IMG/VR virus record: IMGVR_UViG_3300022177_000061
Coordinates: 1-42,174 of that record
From: a virus
Lineage: Duplodnaviria; Caudoviricetes
DNA length: 42,174 nucleotides
Strand: one strand, 5' to 3'
Shown here: positions 13,807 to 33,879 of the stretch, one piece after another
Layout of the letters: each line of letters opens with the position of its first letter
Numbering within the stretch: position 1 is the stretch's first letter
The notes under the pieces: generated by a model
Seen by the model: the letters and a program-made list of their open reading frames with translations, nothing else
Told to the model about the DNA's origin: nothing
The model's database searches: none
Program-made: the position numbers and the translations under genes

Positions 13807-14049
13807 TCAGGAGGATTGTTCAGTCAATTTCTGCTTGAACAGAAAGTACATTGCAGGGCCAGCTATGGTTGTAAAGAGAGTGCCGGCAGAAGTGCAGACA
13901 AGGATAATGGACTCTTTGTTTTGAATGCCTGCGATTACAACATAGCATGCCAGGAATAAGGCCATAAAGATGATAATGCTTCCGGTCATTCTGCTGTTTG
14001 ACTTCACCCCGGGAGACTCTTCCCAATATCCGGTTTTCATGTTTTCCAT
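13807..14049 (-). CDS. Two-TM membrane protein, holin-like
   Basis: 80 aa, two hydrophobic helices, KSNSRM N-motif, near the endolysin. Confidence 0.55.
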   Translation of the reverse strand: MENMKTGYWEESPGVKSNSRMTGSIIIFMALFLACYVVIAGIQNKESIILVCTSAGTLFTTIAGPAMYFLFKQKLTEQSS

Positions 14050-14052
14050 TGC

Positions 14053-14466
14053 TTACAATCCTGTTATCACTTCCATCGATTCCATCAATTCCGGGAAGAA
14101 AACTTCCTGGTTGTAGTACTCCTGGTTGGATGGAGTGAGTCCGTATATCTCTTCTCCGTATCTTTCCTCAAGATCATATAAGTCCGTAGCAAGGATTTCG
14201 AACTCCTGAGAGTCCACATCAAGCTGAAAGGACCCGTGAAAGGATCCGGTATCGTAAAGCATGATCGGACCGGCAGGCTTTCCAAACATTGTAACCGAGG
14301 TATAAGAGTAGTCCGGCATCTTGGTTCTGTCGGCCCGGATCCCATGCAACAGCTGTTCCCGGTTAAGACTGAGCATTGACTCTCCTGTTCTGCCGATGGC
14401 AGCAAGGGCCTCCCTCTGAATGTCCAGTTCAGACAATGCTTCATATAAATCCAGGGCAGTAACCAT
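14053..14466 (-). CDS. Putative virion morphogenesis / tail completion protein
   Basis: LYDTGSFHGSF motif resembles DTG motifs of HK97-gp10-like neck proteins; acidic; in late operon. Confidence 0.45.
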   Translation of the reverse strand: MVTALDLYEALSELDIQREALAAIGRTGESMLSLNREQLLHGIRADRTKMPDYSYTSVTMFGKPAGPIMLYDTGSFHGSFQLDVDSQEFEILATDLYDLEERYGEEIYGLTPSNQEYYNQEVFFPELMESMEVITGL

Positions 14467-14469
14467 TGA

Positions 14470-14856
14470 TCAGGCTTTTTTCAATTTCTCAATCTCACTT
14501 TTGAGCCTTCCGTTCTCGCTCATGATATCATTGAGCTTCTTACTCTGCTCCTCAAATTTGTGGCTCAGTTCATTTAACTGACTTTTCAACTCAGAGTTCT
14601 CTCTTTTGAGGCCATCGATGTTTTCATTGTAGATCTTCAGCTGGGCATTCAGATTCTCTGCAGCTTCTTTCCAAATATCGACAGCCTTACCCAGGTTCTC
14701 AATCTGCTGGGTCTGTGCCCGGGTCTCTTCAAGTTTTGCCTGGGCTTCTACCAGGCGAGCATCCGCATTGTTTTTCCTGCGTCCAAAAATCCATCCCCCC
14801 ACTCCGGTAGCAATGCTAGAGCCAAATAGTATCAATAAGCTTTCGGGTGTATCCAT
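14470..14856 (-). CDS. Holin-like protein (N-terminal TM plus coiled coil)
   Basis: TM helix followed by GRRK, then a long heptad coiled coil; TAATG-coupled to the endolysin. Confidence 0.55.
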   Translation of the reverse strand: MDTPESLLILFGSSIATGVGGWIFGRRKNNADARLVEAQAKLEETRAQTQQIENLGKAVDIWKEAAENLNAQLKIYNENIDGLKRENSELKSQLNELSHKFEEQSKKLNDIMSENGRLKSEIEKLKKA

Positions 14857-15245
14857 TAGAATTTGAAGTAAGTTTCAGGGTTAACCCAGTTTCCGTTTTG
14901 TTTAACTGTAAAATGAAGGTGAGGGCCAGTACTGCCCCCTGTGTTCCCACTTTTAGCAATGACATCGCCAGCATTAACAATTTCTCCAACCTTTCTTAAC
15001 TGCTGATCAAGATGGGCAAATCCAAAGCGGATCCCTGTTCTTCCTATCATGGCCATACACTTACCACCCTTCTCATTCTCCCAGACCTCCGATATCCTTC
15101 CAGAATCCGGTGCCAACACATCGGTCCCAATAGGAGCGGCAATGTCAAGGCCATTATGGAAGGATCCAATCTTGCCGGTGATGGGGTGTTTTCTTGGGCC
15201 AAACCTACTCGTCACCCTCCCGCTTATCGGTTTTTGAAAGTTCAT
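14856..15245 (-). CDS. M23 family metallopeptidase, probable endolysin
   Basis: VTSRFGPRKHP, HNGLD (HxxxD), AHL, GNTGGSTGPHLHF (HxH) motifs. Confidence 0.9.
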   Translation of the reverse strand: MNFQKPISGRVTSRFGPRKHPITGKIGSFHNGLDIAAPIGTDVLAPDSGRISEVWENEKGGKCMAMIGRTGIRFGFAHLDQQLRKVGEIVNAGDVIAKSGNTGGSTGPHLHFTVKQNGNWVNPETYFKF

Positions 15246-16884: not shown

Positions 16885-17384
16885 ATTCCAAAAGTGTTGA
16901 CGGGTGAAAGCGTATATTCATGCTCCAGGTCAAATTCAGGATATGTTTCAGCATTCTGGATCACCCAGGAAAAGACTGCTCTGCCCTTCCGGACAGCATC
17001 ATTGTAGGCCCGGGACATTTTATCGGTATTGAGAACGACATTGGCATTCTCCCCCACCGCTTCAATCTCCCCAAGGCCGGAACTGGTGGATAGACGGTCG
17101 CGGAAGTAATGGTAGTACACGTAGCCGGCAATAGGCGACAGCTTCGTGGTTTCATTTACAAGTCTATTCTTCAGATCTACCCACCTTTGTTCCGGAGTCG
17201 CTGCAGAAATGCCTGTCTGAAATTCAGTAGACAAGTCAGGGCCGAGAACCTCATCGAGGAACTCCGGTTCATACTTACTGATGAACCGGTTCAGTTCCTC
17301 AACATTCCCTGCCGGAATTTGACCCACTCCTGTGAGGTTTGGGACGAGCATTTCTCCAACGAAATATGTTTGATTGATCAGCAT
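16881..17384 (-). CDS. Putative head-tail adaptor
   Basis: 167 aa helical, after head genes, ATGA-coupled to the next gene. Confidence 0.55.
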   Translation of the reverse strand: MLINQTYFVGEMLVPNLTGVGQIPAGNVEELNRFISKYEPEFLDEVLGPDLSTEFQTGISAATPEQRWVDLKNRLVNETTKLSPIAGYVYYHYFRDRLSTSSGLGEIEAVGENANVVLNTDKMSRAYNDAVRKGRAVFSWVIQNAETYPEFDLEHEYTLSPVNTFGI

Positions 17385-17833
17385 TACTCAAGCCAGACTT
17401 TAAACTCACATTTGGTGATACGTGATTTCTGCGCTGTGGCCGTCGCATCCAGCCCAAGCTTGTAGAACCGGTATCGGTTAGCGGTTGTATTGCTGATTAT
17501 GATAGTAGTGTCAGAGCTTGTACCTTTCCACGTCACAGCTGTACCGATATTTGTCCAGCTTTCATCCTCAAACTTTTTGCCCTGCAGGAGTACAGCAACA
17601 TTCGGAGATCCGGAAATGCTGTCCAGAGAAATAAGCCAATCCTGAGTCTGCTTCAGATGGCTATTGGCGTTCACCTCAAAATGATATAACTGGTCATTGT
17701 TGGTGATGGTGTCAGCTGCGCCCATGGCAAACGAATGGAATGTTTTCGTTTGCGACAAGGTCACTGCTTTATCCTGTGCACTTACCGCAGTAACGCAGAG
17801 GATCAGAGAGATTAAAAACAGAAAGTGTTTCAT
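17384..17833 (-). CDS. Signal-peptide-bearing beta-sandwich protein in the head module (decoration/cement-like)
   Basis: MKHFLFLISLILCVTAVSA|Q Sec signal; VLLQGKKFEDESWTNIG...RYRFYKL jelly-roll-like pattern. Confidence 0.65.
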   Translation of the reverse strand: MKHFLFLISLILCVTAVSAQDKAVTLSQTKTFHSFAMGAADTITNNDQLYHFEVNANSHLKQTQDWLISLDSISGSPNVAVLLQGKKFEDESWTNIGTAVTWKGTSSDTTIIISNTTANRYRFYKLGLDATATAQKSRITKCEFKVWLE

Positions 17834-18097: not shown

Positions 18098-19486
18098 TTA
18101 CGCAACAACCTCTTCGATTGCAGCCTTGATGGTCGCGAAATCTCCATATAGGAAGGCGCTCTTCTGGTGCTCCTTGATATAGGACATGAGTCTCTTTTCG
18201 CCCAGAACGGTAACAAGGTTCTTGGTGAAGTCATCATTCTCCCAACCGAGGGTAATTTCAAAGGCTACATAGTCCCGAATGTTGAGTTTAGTCCAGTCTC
18301 CAAGCAGGAATTTGCCAACAGCAACGGTGTTGGATTCAACCACCCTGATGCCGGAGATAATAGTCCCATCGGCAGTCGAGAACGGAGGCAGGATATAATG
18401 ACCATCAGATGCCTTGGTAAGCTCCATGTTGGCCTTATCAATCGGGTTTACAAAAACCACATTCGGGATCTGGTTCAGGGTAAAGAGCTGGGTGATTGCA
18501 GCCTTGATAGCATCAAAATTATTAGCCTCCTTGGTGAGAACCGTAGTCAGAACATAGGTGGTGGACTGCTGGATCACTCCAAGAAGATTGTCACCCAAGC
18601 CATCACCGTTCAGCAGATCACTTTCCTCCTTGATGTCAACGACCTCAAGAATCTCACTCTTGAGTTCAGCTACGAAGTTGGGAATGTCCTGCATGGTTTC
18701 GGTGGTGAACTTTGCACCTACAGCGATTTTCTTAGCCTTTGAATCCCGGGTCCTGACCTGGAAACTGATCATTGGTTTCAGGTCGCCTTCACCGATGAAT
18801 TCAGCATCACCCTGTTCATTGTATTTCTCCGCCCACACATGAAGGGGGCTGGTGGTGGTGGCTACCGAAGCAAAAGACCTGAGAAACCTTGCATTCCTGG
18901 GAGCCCTGTCCCATCCGGAGTCCATTGTCGGCATCGGGATATAAGAGCTTGCCGGATTGACAGCATTGGCTGTGGTAATCGGAATATTTGCAGCCTTCAG
19001 TTCAATCTTAAGCTTCTGCCCGGGAGCAGCCTTGATAGCATCCATCAGGCTCTTTTCCTTAATCTGATCCTTAATCTGCTCTTCGAATGATTTAAATACC
19101 GGCGGTTTGCTTCCGGCATCCTTAAGAGCAATGATCTCCAGGCCCTGTTTTTCGATGACATCATTAAGCTTTTTAAACTCCTCATCATCGGCCAGATTGA
19201 GTTTCATCTCTTTGATCTTTGCCGCGATAGTGTCGAGCATCTTTTGCTCAGTGATGTACTCCTTGTCGTACTTCTCCTTTGCCTTCTCGATGGTGTCGGC
19301 CAGTGCCTTGTACATGGCCTCTTCCTTGCCCTCCAGGGTCACCCCTCCAACAACGATTGCCATCGCAGTAGTGGCACCAAAGGCTTTCTCAGGATTTGTC
19401 GCAAAGGAAAGTCCGGCAATAATCCCGATAAGAATCACCGACAGGATCATCAGCTTTTTCAGCCTCTTTTCTTTTAACTTTTTCAT
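18098..19486 (-). CDS. Major capsid protein, HK97 fold, with delta domain and an N-terminal hydrophobic extension
   Basis: AEFIGEGDLKP, KKIAV, LLNGDG..NLLG, DGHYILP, GKFLLGDW, DDFTKNLVTVLGEKR motifs; follows the prohead protease. Confidence 0.92.
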   Translation of the reverse strand: MKKLKEKRLKKLMILSVILIGIIAGLSFATNPEKAFGATTAMAIVVGGVTLEGKEEAMYKALADTIEKAKEKYDKEYITEQKMLDTIAAKIKEMKLNLADDEEFKKLNDVIEKQGLEIIALKDAGSKPPVFKSFEEQIKDQIKEKSLMDAIKAAPGQKLKIELKAANIPITTANAVNPASSYIPMPTMDSGWDRAPRNARFLRSFASVATTTSPLHVWAEKYNEQGDAEFIGEGDLKPMISFQVRTRDSKAKKIAVGAKFTTETMQDIPNFVAELKSEILEVVDIKEESDLLNGDGLGDNLLGVIQQSTTYVLTTVLTKEANNFDAIKAAITQLFTLNQIPNVVFVNPIDKANMELTKASDGHYILPPFSTADGTIISGIRVVESNTVAVGKFLLGDWTKLNIRDYVAFEITLGWENDDFTKNLVTVLGEKRLMSYIKEHQKSAFLYGDFATIKAAIEEVVA

Positions 19487-19488
19487 TT

Positions 19489-20286
19489 TTAATTAACTGA
19501 TTGATTTGACAATAATTGAAATTCAAGTGCTTTCGCAACCTTTTCGTAATCAACTGGCACCGGCTTGCTTTCCTGCTTGAGTGCGGTCTGCGGCTCAACT
19601 TCAGCAAGTGATACGTGTTTCGCGATAAGTCTGCGGATTTCGTATTGAGTCTCAGGGTCAATGCCCTTGAGGATACGTTCAGTTTCACGAACCAGGGCAT
19701 TGCGCTCTGATTCGATTGTTTCTGCCTTCATCCCGGTGAATGGGGTGTTTTCATCGGCTCCCATGGTTACGACACTGCCTTCAAACAGGAGCAGTTCATA
19801 GCAGATAAAGGCATCCGTGACAGTCCCATCAGGAAGGGTCCATTCTCCCCACTGGCACTTATCCCATACGTAGCGGATACCGATGGAGTGTTGGTTGAGG
19901 GTCCCGGAATTGTACTGCTCAAGCACCCGATCTCCCTGGGGTATCTTGTCAATGTAAGCCTCGAAGTATAACCCGGCATCATCCTCCCTCAGAACTTTGA
20001 AGTGACCGATAGGATCCTTCATGTCATGCATGTAGAGGTAGGCGATCTTGCGGGCTGTTTTTGATTCCGGACCACGTTCCTGGATGGACTTGGCAAAGCA
20101 GCCTTTGATCAGAACATCTCCATCATCCTGCATGTTGCCGAATGAGGTCAGGTACCCGGACACAATCCGGGTGTCTGTGTCAGCAGATTTAATCTCAGCT
20201 GAACAGCTTTTGAAAATAACAGGCCTTGCAGCTAATGCAGCCTTGGCGGCCTTTTTTGCCTTAATGGCTAATTCCTTAGCATCCAT
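19489..20286 (-). CDS. HK97-family prohead protease
   Basis: VSGYLTSFGNMQDDGDVLIKGCF, LYMHD, GLYFEA, HSIG, LFEGSVVTMGAD motifs. Confidence 0.92.
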   Translation of the reverse strand: MDAKELAIKAKKAAKAALAARPVIFKSCSAEIKSADTDTRIVSGYLTSFGNMQDDGDVLIKGCFAKSIQERGPESKTARKIAYLYMHDMKDPIGHFKVLREDDAGLYFEAYIDKIPQGDRVLEQYNSGTLNQHSIGIRYVWDKCQWGEWTLPDGTVTDAFICYELLLFEGSVVTMGADENTPFTGMKAETIESERNALVRETERILKGIDPETQYEIRRLIAKHVSLAEVEPQTALKQESKPVPVDYEKVAKALEFQLLSNQSVN

Positions 20287-21723
20287 TTATGAATACATTA
20301 TTGCGTTTGCATCCTGTTCAGCAAGGCCAAACAGGACAATTAAAATTTGACGTTTACGATTATCCGGGATGTTCGTATCTGCAATGATCGCTTGCATTGC
20401 CTGTGTGCCTCCTACTCCTAACTTGACCGCCAGCGGCATAGACTGAATATCACTTAAGAATCTGTCTCCCTCAGTCCCCCGTGTATCGAAATCGAGGTTA
20501 ACCAGGAATTCATTCAGTGTTATGATATTCCTCTCAAGAAGGGGTAGGTTTGCATTGACTCTTGATAATAAAGCATCAGCCTTTTCCTTTTCTGATTGCT
20601 GAAATACATCCAGATGATCATAGTAAACCGAGAGCCTTAACCCTTGCTTGTCAAGCTCAAAAAAGTTAGTGAAGGTCTCGGCCCAGCCATCGGCCTCCGG
20701 GATGATCGTATCCTGGTAGAGTGACTTCTTTGCCTCCCCAACATTGGAATACGTGGATCCTTCTTTGAACCCCAGCAAATACATCGGGTAATCGTAGTTG
20801 TCGGCTATCTGCCTGACATCATCCTGAATCTCTTCGAATAACATCAGGTCCTTAGTCGGGAAAGTCATCGGCTGCCATTTCAGATTCGCATTGGTGATGA
20901 TCACCTGATACTGGTCCTTGCCAAGGCCGTACTTTCTGTAATCTTCCTGAACCTCTTTCTTTTCTTCGCCCTGCAGGGGGACTGCTCCTGCAGCATCCCG
21001 GGTCTGATTTGACAGGATGCCGAGAGCTCCCTTCCTGGTGATGAGCACGTTCCGGGCTTCGTAGGCAGCAACAATGTTGGAGATGGGATCCTGGAGCGAT
21101 GCCAGCCGGCTCTGCCCCCGGGTAACATCTGTGGAATTCTGGTTGATGTCCCTGATATGAATTACACTGCCATCAGGCATAGGAGTGATTGATCCGTTCA
21201 GACTGATGTCATATCCTTCAATGATATCGGCCAGTTCTGTCTGAAAATAGTGCTTGCCGGTAAGCCTTACGTTGATGATCCAATTCGGGACCACCCACAG
21301 GGCTTTGACTTTTGATTTGTCAGTGAACCCGGCCGGGATGATGGCAAAGAAGAAGACCTCTCCGAACACCTGCTCATAAACTTTGGCCTGTGATAATAGC
21401 TGATTCCAGGACTGCAGGGGATTGGGTTTCTTAAGAAGCTTCTGTAATCCAGTCACATTTGCCCCGGTAGCTTCGTTGTTCTCCTTGTCGAGGATCCACC
21501 ACTTACCGTTTGTGAATGCCCGAGCCTTGCGGTTGATGATCCCGTTTACAGGTGGGCAGATATTATAAGCGGCACTTTGGCCCAGGATGGTTGCTGTTTC
21601 TTTAACAGTTTTCGGGAAACCAAAAGCGTAAAAGAACTTACCGTTTTCGTCTTTAACGACAGATCTGGCCGGGGAATTGAAACCAAATAATGACTTAAGA
21701 GAGAAGGAGGCCATGGCGAGCAT
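20287..21723 (-). CDS. Portal protein
   Basis: LLKKPNPLQSW, VIHIRD, GQSRL, STYSNVGEA, ITLNE motifs; between terminase and protease; start could be 21714. Confidence 0.9.
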   Translation of the reverse strand: MLAMASFSLKSLFGFNSPARSVVKDENGKFFYAFGFPKTVKETATILGQSAAYNICPPVNGIINRKARAFTNGKWWILDKENNEATGANVTGLQKLLKKPNPLQSWNQLLSQAKVYEQVFGEVFFFAIIPAGFTDKSKVKALWVVPNWIINVRLTGKHYFQTELADIIEGYDISLNGSITPMPDGSVIHIRDINQNSTDVTRGQSRLASLQDPISNIVAAYEARNVLITRKGALGILSNQTRDAAGAVPLQGEEKKEVQEDYRKYGLGKDQYQVIITNANLKWQPMTFPTKDLMLFEEIQDDVRQIADNYDYPMYLLGFKEGSTYSNVGEAKKSLYQDTIIPEADGWAETFTNFFELDKQGLRLSVYYDHLDVFQQSEKEKADALLSRVNANLPLLERNIITLNEFLVNLDFDTRGTEGDRFLSDIQSMPLAVKLGVGGTQAMQAIIADTNIPDNRKRQILIVLFGLAEQDANAIMYS

Positions 21724-21805: not shown

Positions 21806-22957
21806 CTATGTTGAATTACTCACCGCAGCATAGCGAATAGCATCCCACATGTGGTTGTATTTGTCGACCGGCTCATTTAGCTGAATGCCATCGATCATGC
21901 GCCACTTATAGTTTTCGGCCTCTTTTTTGGCTGCTGGATCCCGGACCAGGTGGATGTTAAAGTTCTTAACCTTCCCGATTCCGAACTTTATCTTCTTTGT
22001 CTTAGCCGGGAATATCTTGATCCCTCCCCTTCTGATGTGTGCTATCCTGGTCAGGTTCTCACTGTCCGCCCAGTACTCCCCTTTTGCATCAATCTTCCTG
22101 ATCACCTCAAGACATTCATCATCTGATTCGATCGGGGTGTAAGTAAGCAACTTTGCATAAAGGTTCCGGCCAGAGATCCTGATCCGGACGATGGCCGTCG
22201 GGTCAATCGTATAACCCCAGTCAGCTCCATAGAATTCAGCCTCGTAATCTTCCGGCAGTTCATCAATCCACTTCACTTTTGGATAGATTAACCCTTCAGG
22301 AGATGCTCTCAGGCCAAGGCCATAAACCTGCCACATGTAATCATCCGCTGTCCCGTTTGCAACATTGTCAGGGTTCCCTGGATCATAAGTCCGAATCTTA
22401 TCCTTTTCGGCTACTGAAACGAATGGGTTGTCTAGTAATGTAGATTTAACAAAAACTACATCTGGTCTTTTCTCTAAGTCAAAAATCCAGTGATCGCTTG
22501 CGGATGGGTTGTAATCCATCCACCAAAATTTTCGGCAACGTTGTTCCAACTGGTCAAAGAACCCCCGCTCAATACCATTCAGGGCCTCATTGATAAAAAA
22601 GAAATCAGACCCCATCCCATGAAACTTTGAAACTTTATCAGCCCCTAAAAAGTTTACTTTACTTCCAAGTAGATTGAACGTGGTAACATCTTTGTTTTTG
22701 AATGGTGATTTCAGATTGATCTGGTTCAACCGTTTGTCGTAGTCATCAAAGAGGGTTGTTTTGAAACTGTTGTATGTTTCGCGGACGTTATTGATTATTA
22801 TTCTTTCGCTGGAATTGGATGTCAGGTATAGCTGGAAGTCAACCCCGGACCATGTTTTCCCAGAGCGACTACCGCCCTCCAACACCACACCTCTGTATCC
22901 TGATTTGTAAGCATTGACAAGAGCCCTGAAATTTTTATTGATCAGTTTCTTGCTCAT
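21806..22957 (-). CDS. terL: Terminase large subunit (PBSX-like)
   Basis: GGSRSGKT Walker A, FFINEA Walker B, DYNP, GADWG..DPTA and NHMWDAIRYA nuclease motifs. Confidence 0.93.
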   Translation of the reverse strand: MSKKLINKNFRALVNAYKSGYRGVVLEGGSRSGKTWSGVDFQLYLTSNSSERIIINNVRETYNSFKTTLFDDYDKRLNQINLKSPFKNKDVTTFNLLGSKVNFLGADKVSKFHGMGSDFFFINEALNGIERGFFDQLEQRCRKFWWMDYNPSASDHWIFDLEKRPDVVFVKSTLLDNPFVSVAEKDKIRTYDPGNPDNVANGTADDYMWQVYGLGLRASPEGLIYPKVKWIDELPEDYEAEFYGADWGYTIDPTAIVRIRISGRNLYAKLLTYTPIESDDECLEVIRKIDAKGEYWADSENLTRIAHIRRGGIKIFPAKTKKIKFGIGKVKNFNIHLVRDPAAKKEAENYKWRMIDGIQLNEPVDKYNHMWDAIRYAAVSNST

Positions 22958-23355: not shown

Positions 23356-24717
23356 TCACATAAAATCTTCCATTTTCAGGCTGCCATTCAGATGTTGAAT
23401 CTCAGGCTTAATGTTGTTTTTCTGGCAGTGTTTTATGTACCTTACAATAGTGGTTTGAACGTGCTTTGGCTCAATCTCAGTACCGATGCATTTGCGTTTG
23501 GTCTTTTCACAGGCGATCAAGGTAGATCCGGATCCAAGGAAAAAGTCCGCAACGACATCACCCTGGTTTGTGGTGTCCAGGATTGCATCTGCAAGCATTA
23601 CGACAGGCTTGGGAGTTGGATGGTTTTTGAGCTGGTCCCTGTCGGGATTTTTTAAGGAGTGCCCGGATGGGTAGTCCCATACGTTTGTCCTTACCCTGTC
23701 TATCAGGTCAATATGGGAAAGATGTTTTTCGTCACCGTTCTTGAAAATGAAGCACAGTTCATGTTTTGCTCTGTAAAATGACCCATTGGCCATAATGTCC
23801 TTATTCCATACGCACAGTTGTTTCGGGATTGGTGATCCATAAACGGCCTGAGCAGCTTCTGTCATGTGCCAGACGTGTCTCCAGTCCATAAAAATAAAAT
23901 GAATGGATCCGGGCAATGAATAACTGCAACCGGTTTGCATAATGCCTTTCAGGAAGTTGGCAAATTCAATGTCTGTCATTTCTCCGGCTCCCATTGCAAA
24001 ATCAGTGTGTTGGACTTGTCCCTTATTACCGATCTCATCAGCGGCAAGATTGTAAGGTGGATCCGTCAGGATGATTCTTGCCGGGGCATGCTCAAAGAAT
24101 GGTTTAACCAACTCACTGTGCCGGAAGTCCGAACAAACCACAATATGATCCCCAAGCTTAAACTGATCTCCCTTTATCACGATGATCTGTTCTTCGTTTA
24201 CCTCCGGGATCTCCTCTTCTTCATCATCAGGTTCGTTTAAGTCGAACATGTCAAACTTTTGCTCAAACCTGTCGATTGAGAATTCCGGCAGATCCATCTG
24301 CTCCCTGAGCTCTGAGAAGTCCAGTTCATACTCCTTCATGAAGTCAAACAACCCCTGCTGGCTCACCCGGGCATAAATGGATGAATAGATCGTTACCAGC
24401 TTTGCTGCCTCTTTCTTATTCTCGCAGTGGATGAATGTGGCCGGCAAAAGGTATGGAACATAATATCCTTCCTTAAGGAGCTGCTCAAGCATTAGGGTTC
24501 GATGTTTGCCATCAAGGCAGAAAATAGTTCCATTTTCCGGATCCTCCCACACGTAAAAAGGCTGGGTGAAATTGTTTGCCAGGATGGAAGCTTTGAGCCG
24601 GTGTGCAGCGTCGGGTTCCAAGTCTTTAAAGCCTTCCTGCTGGATAAACTTAAAATCCTGCCAGTTGACATTTTCTGTTTTGAGTACTCTGGAAGAGAGG
24701 GTTGCAGTGGTATCCAT
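23356..24717 (-). CDS. ParB-like domain fused to an N6-adenine/N4-cytosine DNA methyltransferase (beta class)
   Basis: LDGKHR ParB motif; TDPPYN, HPTPKP, DFFLGSGSTL, GTEIEP. Confidence 0.9.
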   Translation of the reverse strand: MDTTATLSSRVLKTENVNWQDFKFIQQEGFKDLEPDAAHRLKASILANNFTQPFYVWEDPENGTIFCLDGKHRTLMLEQLLKEGYYVPYLLPATFIHCENKKEAAKLVTIYSSIYARVSQQGLFDFMKEYELDFSELREQMDLPEFSIDRFEQKFDMFDLNEPDDEEEEIPEVNEEQIIVIKGDQFKLGDHIVVCSDFRHSELVKPFFEHAPARIILTDPPYNLAADEIGNKGQVQHTDFAMGAGEMTDIEFANFLKGIMQTGCSYSLPGSIHFIFMDWRHVWHMTEAAQAVYGSPIPKQLCVWNKDIMANGSFYRAKHELCFIFKNGDEKHLSHIDLIDRVRTNVWDYPSGHSLKNPDRDQLKNHPTPKPVVMLADAILDTTNQGDVVADFFLGSGSTLIACEKTKRKCIGTEIEPKHVQTTIVRYIKHCQKNNIKPEIQHLNGSLKMEDFM

Positions 24718-30010: not shown

Positions 30011-30301
30011 CTAAACTTCAGGGTAAATCACTTCCTTAGGGTATGCGGCCACCCGCATCTCATCACTCATAACCTGGACATGTTCATCAAATACATGGAG
30101 TATCTGAGCATTAAACTTCACCGCTCCATCATTGACAATCACTTTCTGCCCCATGTACAAGGTTTCCCGCCAGGCCTTCAGGGAGTCTTTCTCGGAGTTC
30201 TTTAAGATCCGGATCAGGAAATAACTCGCGATTAGTACTACCCCAGCCATCAGGGTCTGAAGTAGATACACCCACTCAATCCAATCATAATATTTACTCA
30301 T
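30011..30301 (-). CDS. Small membrane protein
   Basis: N-terminal TM helix plus small beta domain. Confidence 0.6.
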   Translation of the reverse strand: MSKYYDWIEWVYLLQTLMAGVVLIASYFLIRILKNSEKDSLKAWRETLYMGQKVIVNDGAVKFNAQILHVFDEHVQVMSDEMRVAAYPKEVIYPEV

Positions 30302-31956
30302 GCTTCAACTAATTGAGGTTGGTTAAAGAGATCCGCAACCAGGTCAACGATATTCTCCTCCACCTGCTCTGTAGCCCCGGTGACCGTTGATGCAATCTCG
30401 CGCTTGGTTTGAATAATCCGGTAGATCTTTTCATCGATCGTATTCTGACCGAGGAAGTAGGTGCATGTAACAGAATCCAGCTGACCGATACGGTGGCACC
30501 GGTCCTCACACTGATCACAATCAGCAGCGGTCCATGGAAGTTCCACGAAAGCCACACGTGAGCTGGCAGTTAGGGTAAGCCCTACCCCTGCAGCTTTGAT
30601 GCTGCAGATGATAAGCTTTGTATCAGGGTTCTTTTGAAAGGAATCAACAGCATGTTGTCTCTCACTGGCAGAATCGCTTCCTGTGATGGTTACAGCTTTA
30701 GGGTACTGCTGATGGATGGCAGATATCACCTCTTTCAGGTGTGCGAAGATTACTAGCTTCTCCCCGGACTCAAGGATATCATCGACGAATTCAAAGACAT
30801 CCTTTAGTTTCCCCCGGGCAGAGATATTTTTCAGAATTCCGATCATTACCATGATCTCTCCCCTGAGAGCCCTGGCGATCTTTTCATCATCGGCATCCTT
30901 GTATTTGATCAGGTATTGAACCAGGCTCGCTTCAGCATCGGCATACTCCTTCCGGGTCGAAATGTCACAGAGTGCGACCTGGCGCATCTTTGCCGGCAGA
31001 TCTTTAAGTACATCCTGTTTATCCCTCCGGTAGAAGCAATTCAGGTTCAGCTTATAATTCAACTCGCGGAGGTTTGAGGCCTCATTTGGCCCTGAGCAGT
31101 ACCTCTGGACAAAATTCTTGTAGCCACCAAAAGCCTGCATCTGCTCAATGATCCCCAGCTGACTGATAAGATCCTTGGGCTTATTGATTACCGGGGTACC
31201 GGTTAAGGCCAGGATATACTCCTTGCCGGTGCAGATGCCTTTTGTGAACTTGGTCTGCTGCGTGGCCAGTGATTTCACCCGATGGCTTTCATCAATAATC
31301 ACTGACTGGAATATGCCGGTAAACTGTTCTTTAAACTTGATATGGTTTAACCGCAACTTACCATTCTCAGGTTTATTGATACTCTGGACGAAATATTTTT
31401 TCAGGCTTTCATAATTCACGATGAAAACCTGCGTAAGGCCCGAGCTCCAAAACAGGTGAAAGTTCTGTTTGACATTATCGTTCAGGATCATGGCCTTTTT
31501 ATCCGTCCACATGTGCCACTCCCTTTGCCAGTTGATCTTCAGTGATGAAGGACAGATAATCAGGCAGGGAAAAGCATCTGCAGCAAGAATTGTCGCGATG
31601 GCCTGAGCTGTCTTACCGAGCCCGGGCTGGTCTCCAATGATGACCTTCTTTTTCTGCAGAGAATAGGCCACCCCGTTTGCCTGATATGGAAACAGGTTCA
31701 TCTTAAGCGGGATGGCTTCTTTTAGTTGGGGCATCTCCGGGAGTTCCCCGATCTGTTCATCTTCGATATCAATCCCGAACTGAAAATTGTATCGTTGGCC
31801 AAAGCTCCGAACCACGGCCTCGTGTACCTCGGGGACTACCCAGCATTTATTTGTAGGGTCAAAACCCCTTCCTGGCAGCTCCTTGACTTTCTCCACCAGG
31901 AAGGGAGAGTATTTAAATTGTATCCGGAAGAATTTCCCTTGTTTTGTGATCAGCAT
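30298..31956 (-). CDS. SNF2-family helicase with N-terminal HARP-like domain
   Basis: DQPGLGKT, IIDESH, LTGTP, AAGVGLTL, QCEDRCHRIGQ; N-terminal F.YSP.LVE.VK.LPGR.FDP..K.W. Confidence 0.9.
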   Translation of the reverse strand: MLITKQGKFFRIQFKYSPFLVEKVKELPGRGFDPTNKCWVVPEVHEAVVRSFGQRYNFQFGIDIEDEQIGELPEMPQLKEAIPLKMNLFPYQANGVAYSLQKKKVIIGDQPGLGKTAQAIATILAADAFPCLIICPSSLKINWQREWHMWTDKKAMILNDNVKQNFHLFWSSGLTQVFIVNYESLKKYFVQSINKPENGKLRLNHIKFKEQFTGIFQSVIIDESHRVKSLATQQTKFTKGICTGKEYILALTGTPVINKPKDLISQLGIIEQMQAFGGYKNFVQRYCSGPNEASNLRELNYKLNLNCFYRRDKQDVLKDLPAKMRQVALCDISTRKEYADAEASLVQYLIKYKDADDEKIARALRGEIMVMIGILKNISARGKLKDVFEFVDDILESGEKLVIFAHLKEVISAIHQQYPKAVTITGSDSASERQHAVDSFQKNPDTKLIICSIKAAGVGLTLTASSRVAFVELPWTAADCDQCEDRCHRIGQLDSVTCTYFLGQNTIDEKIYRIIQTKREIASTVTGATEQVEENIVDLVADLFNQPQLVEA

Positions 31957-32159
31957 TACTTGAAGTTTAGTCGTAGTTGTCTGTCCTGTTTGATCTCAAA
32001 ATTGTACTCATTTATAAGTGCTATGGCAAACCGGTTTTTGATCAGGTAAGCGAAATCCTCAAAAGCAATTATTACCTGAAGCTTTCTCCCATCAACCTGG
32101 GCTCCGGCCTTTTTGGCCTTGTACGTGAGGTTATACCTGCGCTTCACTTTGGGATCCAT
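31956..32159 (-). CDS. Hypothetical protein
   Basis: 67 aa, TAATG-coupled to the helicase. Confidence 0.6.
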   Translation of the reverse strand: MDPKVKRRYNLTYKAKKAGAQVDGRKLQVIIAFEDFAYLIKNRFAIALINEYNFEIKQDRQLRLNFK

Positions 32160-32160
32160 G

Positions 32161-33879
32161 TTAAAGGGATTTACCAGTACTGGCTTTAAGGTCCTCGATC
32201 AGCTTATCAATTTTCTCCTTCCGCTTGAGGTATTTCCCCTGCAACTCCAGCTCCACCTGGGTCAGCTGTTCAGGGTATCTCTCCCGGGCGATCTCAATAA
32301 GGGCTTTGGCCTCACTAATCAAGTAAATTGGATTTGCACTGTCAAGCTCTCTCCGGAGCCAGTTGCGGATTATTTTCAACCCTTGCTCGGGTGAAAGTTT
32401 TAAAGCTGCAGGCAGCTTTTCTTCATTTTTAATATACCAGTTCTTTTGATCACCATAAATCTCCACCTCCAGTTCATCCGTGACCCTCGACAGCATGATT
32501 ACGTAAAGCGCTGTCATTTCATTTTCAGACAGCTGATCCGTGATGTTATGATACCCCTCATCCTTCAGCAGCCCTTTGGCAGAAACATAGAGCTTTTCGA
32601 ATGTCAGCTCCTGGTTCCTGCGGTCCTTGGCTTCAAGCTCCTGAATCTGTTGACCGGCATAATCTGTTCCCGTATTGCCGCTGCTCTGAGATTCTTCCTG
32701 CTCCCGAGGCTCCAGAAAAACCACCTTTCCCTTGTTGTTGCCGGCCAACATGAAGGCTTTCCTGAGAACGCCTGCGCTTAGCTTCTCCTGATACTCCTTA
32801 ACCTCCTGCTCATAGTCAATCATTTCACCTTCATAATCAGTAAGAGCTTCAACATAATCTTCATGCTCATCAAAGTCTGATTCTTCAGGCTTCTCAGGTT
32901 GCTCAGGTTCATTAACTTCCATCCATCCGGTTTTCCATGACACCTCAACCGCCGGAGTGCCATTCTTTTTCATGCCGGCCACCCTTTTTTCTTCCTCGCC
33001 ATACAGATAGCCAGGATAGGCAAGGATAACACCGGGTTCATCCTCCTGTACCCTCTTCAATTCACGATCAAAATGAATGTCGGATTTGCGTTTGAAACAA
33101 GACCTGTCAAGGCAAACCCCGGTACTGGGTGAATCCGGAAAAAGGATCAGGTTTGAGGCTGTGTTCTTGGGGCAGGTAGTACATGGCCCGGCCTTCTTAT
33201 CCAGCGTTTTGTCATCAAGGCTGAAAGGAGCCTCCTCAAGTTTTAAGGTAAATTCCCGCTCGATGTTTCGTTTCAGCTCCTTGATGGTAAAACCGGTCCA
33301 ATACGATTCCTTCCGGTGTTCTTCGGAATAGCTGTTATCATAAAGCTCCTTCTGATCCTTTGGCTGAAGTTTGCAGATCTCGGTTGCATGGCCTAAACCG
33401 ATGACATCCTGATTAAGCAGGTTCTTAAATTCCGGGATCAGATCGTTCAGTTTCAGCCGGTGACGGATGTAATACTCAGATTTCCCGAACCTGGTTACCA
33501 AGGTTGGAATGTCATACTTCCTGTGGGTGATCAGGTTCTGAAATGCCTCTGCTTCTTCAAGTGGGCTAACATCCTTCCGCTGCAGGTTCTCTGTGATCAT
33601 CAGGTCCAGCGCTTCCTGGTCCTTCAGTTCCCGGACAATGGCTGGAACTCTCTCAAGCCCTACCTGCTTAGCAGCCCTCCATCTGCGCTCTCCACAGACC
33701 AGTTCATAAGACTCCAACCCTTTCTTAAAATGTGATAACCTTAGGATGATGGGTTGTAAAATACCAACCTCGGTTATTGACTTTGAGAGCTCAGCGATGG
33801 AATTCTCATCAAAGGTTTTCCGTGGATTTAGTTCGCTGGATCGGATGTCACCAGTACTGATGTACTCAATTGTTTGCAT
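32161..33879 (-). CDS. ParB/RepB/Spo0J family protein with Cys cluster and acidic repeat
   Basis: NPRKTFD, GILQPI, YELVCGERRWRAA, ENLQRKDVSPLEEA, HTH; CTTCPKN...CLDRSC. Confidence 0.9.
   Translation of the reverse strand: MQTIEYISTGDIRSSELNPRKTFDENSIAELSKSITEVGILQPIILRLSHFKKGLESYELVCGERRWRAAKQVGLERVPAIVRELKDQEALDLMITENLQRKDVSPLEEAEAFQNLITHRKYDIPTLVTRFGKSEYYIRHRLKLNDLIPEFKNLLNQDVIGLGHATEICKLQPKDQKELYDNSYSEEHRKESYWTGFTIKELKRNIEREFTLKLEEAPFSLDDKTLDKKAGPCTTCPKNTASNLILFPDSPSTGVCLDRSCFKRKSDIHFDRELKRVQEDEPGVILAYPGYLYGEEEKRVAGMKKNGTPAVEVSWKTGWMEVNEPEQPEKPEESDFDEHEDYVEALTDYEGEMIDYEQEVKEYQEKLSAGVLRKAFMLAGNNKGKVVFLEPREQEESQSSGNTGTDYAGQQIQELEAKDRRNQELTFEKLYVSAKGLLKDEGYHNITDQLSENEMTALYVIMLSRVTDELEVEIYGDQKNWYIKNEEKLPAALKLSPEQGLKIIRNWLRRELDSANPIYLISEAKALIEIARERYPEQLTQVELELQGKYLKRKEKIDKLIEDLKASTGKSL

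Follow-up and report, generated by a model that had tools for sequence, protein, structure and literature searches.

The HK97-type major capsid protein encoded by this provirus carries a hydrophobic leader of 51 residues ahead of its entire delta domain. The leader is specific to capsid proteins among the relatives that could be assigned, is kept by close homologues and is often absent further away. We give about an even chance to a reading in which it forms an N-in/C-in two-helix membrane hairpin that tethers the capsid precursor and is removed before the shell closes. The window, the whole stretch of DNA analysed here (42,174 bases), is a provirus record from IMG/VR; the closest named relative of the provirus lies in a Bacteroidales MAG, with 85% capsid identity.

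The capsid ORF (18098-19486, minus strand; 462 aa) matches PF05065 (Phage_capsid) with an E value of 3e-23 over residues 192-433 and belongs to a head module ordered terminase-portal-protease-capsid, with the terminase, a PF04860 portal and a PF04586 protease upstream (Table 1). A profile of 34 capsid relatives matches HK97 gp5 at E 3.5e-47, aligned from HK97 residue 10, and aligns 9lbm gp3 from its residue 7, while the HK97, 9lbm and 9osb chains (385-395 aa) align only from profile position ~60. Because HK97 gp5 and the two solved capsids align only past the leader, the leader is an add-on placed before the whole delta domain. At the delta/core junction, residue 164 is Lys or Arg in 86 of 91 family representatives, to which 224 capsid sequences were reduced, and AlphaFold2 places the delta helices within residues 54-124 at low pLDDT. 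By fold, delta domain and adjacent protease, the capsid protein is a member of the HK97 family. It resembles HK97 gp5 in gene order, in a coiled-coil delta domain of similar length, in the conserved junction Lys and in a gp4-type protease, and differs from it by the extra 51-residue hydrophobic leader before the delta domain. Elsewhere in the window, tyrosine integrase, N6/N4 DNA methylase, SNF2 helicase and ParB-family genes (1-1317, 23356-24717, 30298-33879) fit a temperate phage.

Table 1 Features of the capsid gene and of the head module, in positions of the window
Feature	Positions	Strand	Evidence
Leader n-region, residues 1-11, net +6	19454..19486	-	Net +3 to +7 in 32/32 related leaders
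Leader helix 1, residues 12-30, transmembrane-length, uncharged	19397..19453	-	KD19 2.48; no D/E/K/R at 14-30 in 32/32; helix 2-30 in low-confidence AlphaFold2 model
Polar turn N31-P32-E33-K34, predicted periplasmic loop	19385..19396	-	Pro32 in 27/32; charges at 14-46 confined to 31, 33, 34; helix break at 31
Leader segment 2, residues 35-51, marginally hydrophobic, Gly/Ala-rich, Gly47-Gly48 near end	19334..19384	-	Best KD19 1.35; uncharged 35-46 in 32/32; Gly47 25/32, Gly48 22/32
Coiled-coil delta (scaffolding) domain, residues 52-164, predicted maturation cut after K164	18995..19333	-	Profile alignment to HK97 gp5 and 9lbm gp3; K/R164 86/91
HK97-fold capsid core, residues 165-462	18098..18994	-	PF05065; PHROG 10; PDB HK97 matches
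HK97-family prohead protease (S78), without hydrophobic N-terminus	19489..20286	-	PF04586; TIGR01543 74.2 bits, cut-off 59
Portal protein, without hydrophobic N-terminus	20287..21723	-	PF04860
Terminase large subunit	21806..22957	-	PF04466

The first-pass annotation had described a basic start, a transmembrane-length stretch, a turn and a second hydrophobic stretch, and these features are present as described in residues 1-51 of the 462-aa ORF (19334-19486, minus strand). The best 19-residue Kyte-Doolittle (KD) mean is 2.48, at residues 12-30, and the second stretch reaches a maximum of 1.35. In a 15-residue window the N-terminal hydropathy of the capsid protein is 2.93, compared with 1.37 for the portal, 1.01 for the protease and 0.51 for the terminase, which bears out the earlier remark that these three proteins carry no such signal. 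Across 32 aligned leaders, which were selected by similarity to the query so that part of their uniformity arises by construction, the n-region is charged +3 to +7 in every case, positions 14-30 and 35-46 are charge-free in every case with charges between them only at 31, 33 and 34, and Pro32 is present in 27. The span corresponding to residues 12-51 measures 40 residues in 26 of the 32 and 39-41 residues in 30. Small residues recur at positions 16 (97%), 21 (88%), 35 (100%) and 41 (84%), much as on a helix-packing face, and Gly47 and Gly48 are found in 25 and 22 leaders, respectively. Stretches of ~40 residues with a central turn can form helical hairpins, and a charge-free 19-mer with a basic n-region, a Pro turn and a weaker segment would give the leader the look of a helical hairpin with a cytoplasmic N-terminus.

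The second segment is weak. The mean KD of residues 35-51 is 1.62 across the 32 leaders (range 0.85-2.18), its 19-residue mean reaches 1.6 or more in only 10 of 29 leader-bearing representatives when the window is placed automatically, and V45-L51 could be a soluble beta-turn instead of a membrane segment. AlphaFold2 draws leader helices at residues 2-30 and 32-45 with pLDDT of ~35-51, and with leader and delta domain mostly below 50 only the helix boundaries are usable. Prediction of residues 1-125 as a three-copy complex gave scores of 0.01, 0.47 and 0.01 against a mark of 0.42 and is weighed neither way. PHROGs gave no known domain for residues 1-51, and NCBIfam returned for them only a match to SLATT_4 below threshold (E 0.08).

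Two other kinds of leader occur in the family. The capsid ORF of locus L029 (from 3473; 574 aa) has a leader with four hydrophobic segments, a ~45-residue polar loop and a short basic loop, and such long polar and short basic loops agree with what membrane topology rules would predict. A third type (P0015, P0018 and L085:3680-5062, also P0023, P0043, P0062 and P0081) consists of ~35 basic, non-hydrophobic residues and ends at a Tyr-Lys/Arg-Ser motif followed by a Gly/Asp-rich linker. Several of the hydrophobic leaders likewise end in a Gly-rich linker, a hint of a processing site of its own.

Met1 is the likely start of capsid translation. As had been noted from the DNA, its ATG lies 2 nt past the protease stop in an A-rich context, preceded by TTAATTAAAA. 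Met1 and Lys2 are present in 32 of 32 related leaders. Met42, in contrast, is present in 13 of the 29 filled rows of the leader alignment and lacks the A-rich upstream context of Met1, and Met58 is present in three of 29 leader-bearing representatives, so that the first Met is favoured over both of the inner ones. Codons 2-41 evolve with pN/pS of 0.12-0.44 in six of six pairs from five close loci, with no stops and no frameshifts, which points to purifying selection at the protein level, relaxed as in a targeting signal; in the same six pairs the delta domain gives 0.09-0.22 and the core 0.05-0.10. A mis-called start or an artefact is ruled out by the protease-adjacent ATG, the pN/pS values and the invariant Met1 and Lys2.

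A use of two starts would be compatible with a hairpin tether: a minority of chains would begin at Met1 and serve as anchors for the capsomers that nucleate assembly, and most would begin at Met42 or nearby and be soluble. Leaderless relatives such as L043 begin where the sequence resembles, by eye, segment 2 of L005 and L020, and two starts would remove the geometric problem considered below. With Met42 in less than half of the filled rows and without an A-rich upstream context, however, we find such a division extremely unlikely.

A profile built from the leader alone (14 leaders, 53 positions) was searched against 1.84 billion representative proteins and gave 23 matches, three of them training rows, and every one of the 23 began at residue 1. 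Capsid proteins account for 21 of them (14 by PF05065, six by the query delta/core and one as the L005 capsid start), and two were not assigned. Where the cores of these matches were found, they are 24-42% identical to the query; in P0026 the leader is 65% identical and the core 28%. L171 (G133:C55:3647-7474) is a PF05065 capsid that BLAST does not match significantly to the query, and its leader looks similar and in its second half resembles query-type leaders; it scores only 9.4 bits on the leader profile and may be a look-alike rather than a homologue. P0026 and L171 suggest that the leader has been swapped between distant capsid cores.

Such swapping, together with patchy presence, is typical of accessory traits and raises the question of a role outside assembly, either as a freed membrane peptide (in lysis timing or exclusion) or as a device that, until late, sequesters the capsid protein from host defences able to sense it. 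Being fused to the late protein made in the largest amount would also count out leader copies. We consider a role of this kind quite unlikely, since the phage has separate lysis-type genes (13807-15245) and since no free-standing full-length leader homologue was identified among the 23 profile matches, two of which were not assigned. The lysis-type genes, on the minus strand, lie inside the tail module upstream of a tape-measure-like gene and comprise an M23 peptidase, a TM and coiled-coil protein with a weak spanin match, and an 80-aa two-TM protein.

A hydrophobic N-terminus is found in 31 of the 120 capsid homologues listed and in 13 of the closest 14, where the sole leaderless one is a truncated call of 289 aa. 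Among the 91 family representatives it is present in 29 and absent in 62, and the N-terminal KD maxima follow a bimodal distribution, with 61 no higher than 1.0, 29 at 1.8-3.0 and a single value of 1.4 between the two groups. Conservation of the hydrophobic N-terminus, to which the earlier reading had looked as a check, thus holds among the nearest relatives and breaks down across the family, where even sister pairs differ (L005/L006, L020/L104, L084/P0076), as do the prophages of Dysgonomonas hofstadii (L082, with leader) and D. macrotermitis (L083, without). On a quick core tree, which cannot separate gain from loss and for which starts were checked only where DNA was available, leader presence requires at least 16 changes, eight of them forced by well-supported branches, compared with a shuffled mean of 24.8. 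On these comparisons the leader is conserved but optional, with at least eight gains or losses. Annotation error as the source of the leaderless relatives is ruled out where the DNA was examined: among leaderless loci with DNA and a protease match, 143 of 145, many of them near-copies, start -8 to +11 nt from the protease stop, and two are broken.

Among 201 genomes drawn from the order to which the Bacteroidales MAG belongs, 10 contained PF05065, at 11 places. Four places were dropped (one was broken, two ran off the end of a contig and one scored below the cut-off), and four of the seven intact loci, centre genome included, have the hydrophobic leader, which makes it common in the sampled Bacteroidales prophages. 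A second Bacteroidota draw (201 genomes) yielded a leader in one of five loci, and the 30 best-scoring PF05065 loci of a 201-genome Pseudomonadota draw, a set biased to top Pfam scores, yielded none. The cultured Bacteroidota phage relatives snusmum9-1 and phi19:1 are without a leader. The annotated capsid protein of the Mesorhizobium phage vB_MseS-P1 (PP232116.1; L088:1456-2802), a cultured, inducible phage of an alphaproteobacterium, has the same leader layout; at only 7.1 bits on the leader profile, it may be a look-alike and not a homologue. Its paper reports purified virions (PMC11409702); in the available text the terms 'signal' and 'transmembrane' are absent and the leader goes unmentioned, and a term search of one supplement gave no peptide map. 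Two close capsid homologues carry the source name 'uncharacterized membrane protein', a warning to annotators that capsid homologues can be so named. At L086:2288-3205, a 305-aa ORF between portal and protease has a start resembling the delta/core junction and may be a second capsid-like gene.

In the mechanism we favour, the leader would insert with its N-terminus inside according to the positive-inside rule (PMC13031457), and segment 2 would bring the chain back to the cytoplasm. Subunits or capsomers tethered in this way would be concentrated in two dimensions, or protected from aggregation. The HK97 delta domain lines the prohead interior, its residues 2-66 forming trimeric towers of ~100 Å around the portal that point inward (PMC10275583). 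Because the N-terminus of the delta domain is on the inside, the anchor must go before closure unless membrane is enclosed; with a tether at every delta tip and with the delta domains pointing inward, it cannot last to a post-assembly cut at K164 under the same proviso. Release would most likely follow a host signal-peptidase-type cut just past the Pro turn (A35-F36-G37), after which the marginal segment 2 would slip from the bilayer; alternatively, the cut could fall near Gly47-Gly48 and so on the cytoplasmic side. The capsid protein of the window has an expected mass of 51.0 kDa at full length, and of 46.9, 45.7 and 32.8 kDa when it begins at residues 38, 52 and 165, respectively. Anchor removal would thus precede closure of the shell, and ordinary HK97 maturation at K164 would then take place inside the closed prohead. 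Not every leader has the proposed peptidase site: position 35 holds a small residue in 32 of 32 leaders, position 37 does so in 23 of 32, and Val stands there in seven. Frequent loss of the leader implies no more than a modest gain in efficiency.

A different order of events had been proposed in the first-pass annotation, with all subunits anchored until the prohead protease cuts near residue 164. The predicted cut site is supported by Lys or Arg at this position in 86 of 91 representatives, and the release of finished proheads by this cut conflicts with HK97 geometry (PMC10275583). Taken literally and with HK97 geometry, the proposal would have the lattice spread as a coat over the membrane and close around a small protein-rich vesicle, which we regard as distinctly unlikely. 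The conserved Lys/Arg164 would suit it, as would the SPN3US proheads, which remain membrane-bound without protease (PMC7411985), and 415 hairpins would fit into a vesicle with an outer radius of 100-130 Å, covering 44-83% of its area, if T=7 and 160 Å2 per hairpin are assumed. Against it, DNA packaging would require that lipid and hairpins had first been cleared or could be tolerated, leaderless sisters whose gene set is the same build heads without a leader, and no membrane-scission gene is evident in the head module. We attach very little probability to a fully membrane-templated route of assembly in tailed phages, PRD1-like in topology. In it, the hairpins would fix a layer of HK97-type capsid subunits to the inner membrane on its cytoplasmic side, and the layer would close around a protein-rich vesicle of 20-25 nm that acts as a transient internal scaffold.

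The inward geometry also allows that the leader never stays in a membrane, and that the hydrophobic tips of the delta towers cluster as a protein core at the prohead centre. The clustered tips would help to nucleate or size the shell and would be destroyed along with the delta domain. The ~100-Å inward towers of HK97 delta residues 2-66 (PMC10275583) would favour such an arrangement, 415 leaders would fill a sphere of ~86 Å radius if T=7 is assumed, and an extra cut would be unnecessary. We nevertheless think it unlikely, in view of the strict asymmetry of positive-inside type and the charge-free 17-mers in 32 of 32 leaders, and of the multi-segment L029 leader with its polar loops. An exposed 19-residue hydrophobic N-terminus is, moreover, expected to engage membrane-targeting machinery, which counts against a purely internal core.

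A further reading has the leader as a Sec/SPase I signal, or an N-in/C-out signal anchor, that takes some or all of the capsid protein to the periplasm. The query has an n-h-c layout with Pro at -6 (P32) and small residues at -3/-1 (A35, G37), SignalP 6 gave Sec/SPI on unrelated Porphyromonas phage capsids (PMC10367356), and a neighbouring 149-aa gene has a true signal peptide. However, both the n-region (11 aa) and the h-region (19 aa) are long beside the signals of the 149-aa family, which measure ~19-20 aa, and a conserved charge-free second segment comes after helix 1. An A-x-A-Q-like motif with Gln at +1, in the sense of the Q rule of PMC10367356, is found in one of 29 leader-bearing representatives and not in the query. 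DNA, terminase and portal are cytoplasmic. We judge export very unlikely, and the earlier preference for tethering over Sec export is upheld insofar as the pattern of the 32 leaders appears to fit a hairpin better.

Removable N-terminal leaders are known from the capsid and scaffold proteins of Staphylococcus phage 80alpha, where they are short, not transmembrane and cut by the host protease Prp at a Phe-Ala motif. The putative hairpin shares with them its place on the capsid protein and its predicted removal; a conserved Phe-Ala site of Prp type was not found in the 32 leaders (Phe28 in 14, Ala29 in six). Signal peptides on capsid proteins already appear in the literature: one sentence in print, on a different family, gives SignalP-predicted signal peptides for the MCPs of the Porphyromonas gingivalis 'Nixviridae', and the authors suggest that the prohead protease removes them (PMC10367356). 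These resemble the query in being Bacteroidales prophage capsid proteins with a signal-like N-terminus, and differ from it in their 668 aa, their assignment to PHROG 21862 rather than PHROG 10 and their short single hydrophobic stretch; in the accessible part of the paper, the sentence comes without a membrane model or experiment (PMC10367356).

T4 and SPN3US assemble heads at the inner membrane, and in SPN3US release depends on proteolysis (PMC3185693, PMC7411985). The T4 prohead is held through its portal vertex by a separate chaperone (PMC3185693), whereas the candidate anchor of the query is on the capsid subunit and is optional. The procoat of filamentous phages (f1/M13) offers a second likeness, as a coat precursor in the inner membrane whose leader is cut by a host peptidase (PMC3185693); its fold is unrelated, its mature coat is transmembrane and its virion is extruded, whereas the HK97 core of the query must end soluble. 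By analogy, the query capsid would resemble T4 and SPN3US in assembling at a membrane and procoat in having an inserted leader, and would belong with neither.

HK97-type heads are the textbook case of soluble self-assembly, and a membrane tether step would be unexpected for a capsid of this type. According to the available part of a 2011 review, T4 was at that time the only phage whose proheads had been shown to associate with a membrane (PMC3185693), and SPN3US was later added as a second case (PMC7411985). A description of a hairpin anchor on HK97 capsids was not found in the literature searched, most subscription papers being outside reach. If the favoured reading is true, a swappable anchor encoded in the capsid gene would bring the membrane into the assembly of the most widespread capsid fold and give a direct handle on the site of tailed-phage head nucleation. 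It is testable in cultured material, with phage vB_MseS-P1 and with two Dysgonomonas prophages, that of D. hofstadii, which has the leader, and that of D. macrotermitis, which lacks it.

Two ORFs downstream of the capsid gene, the 149-aa gene (17384-17833, minus strand) encodes a short classic signal peptide followed by Gln, as in the Q-rule type. Genes listed together with it are L084:5037-5486 and L085:5122-5532, and others at L108, L172 and L177. Signal-peptide genes of 136-259 aa lie directly behind the capsid gene in six of 35 distinct loci, and no link to the capsid leader was seen among these loci (one of 10 leader-bearing versus five of 25 leaderless). The 149-aa protein has a predicted jelly-roll fold (pLDDT 83), for which a fold search gave generic jelly-roll matches only. 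It may be a head-decoration protein or an adhesin that is exported and would not encounter the capsid before lysis.
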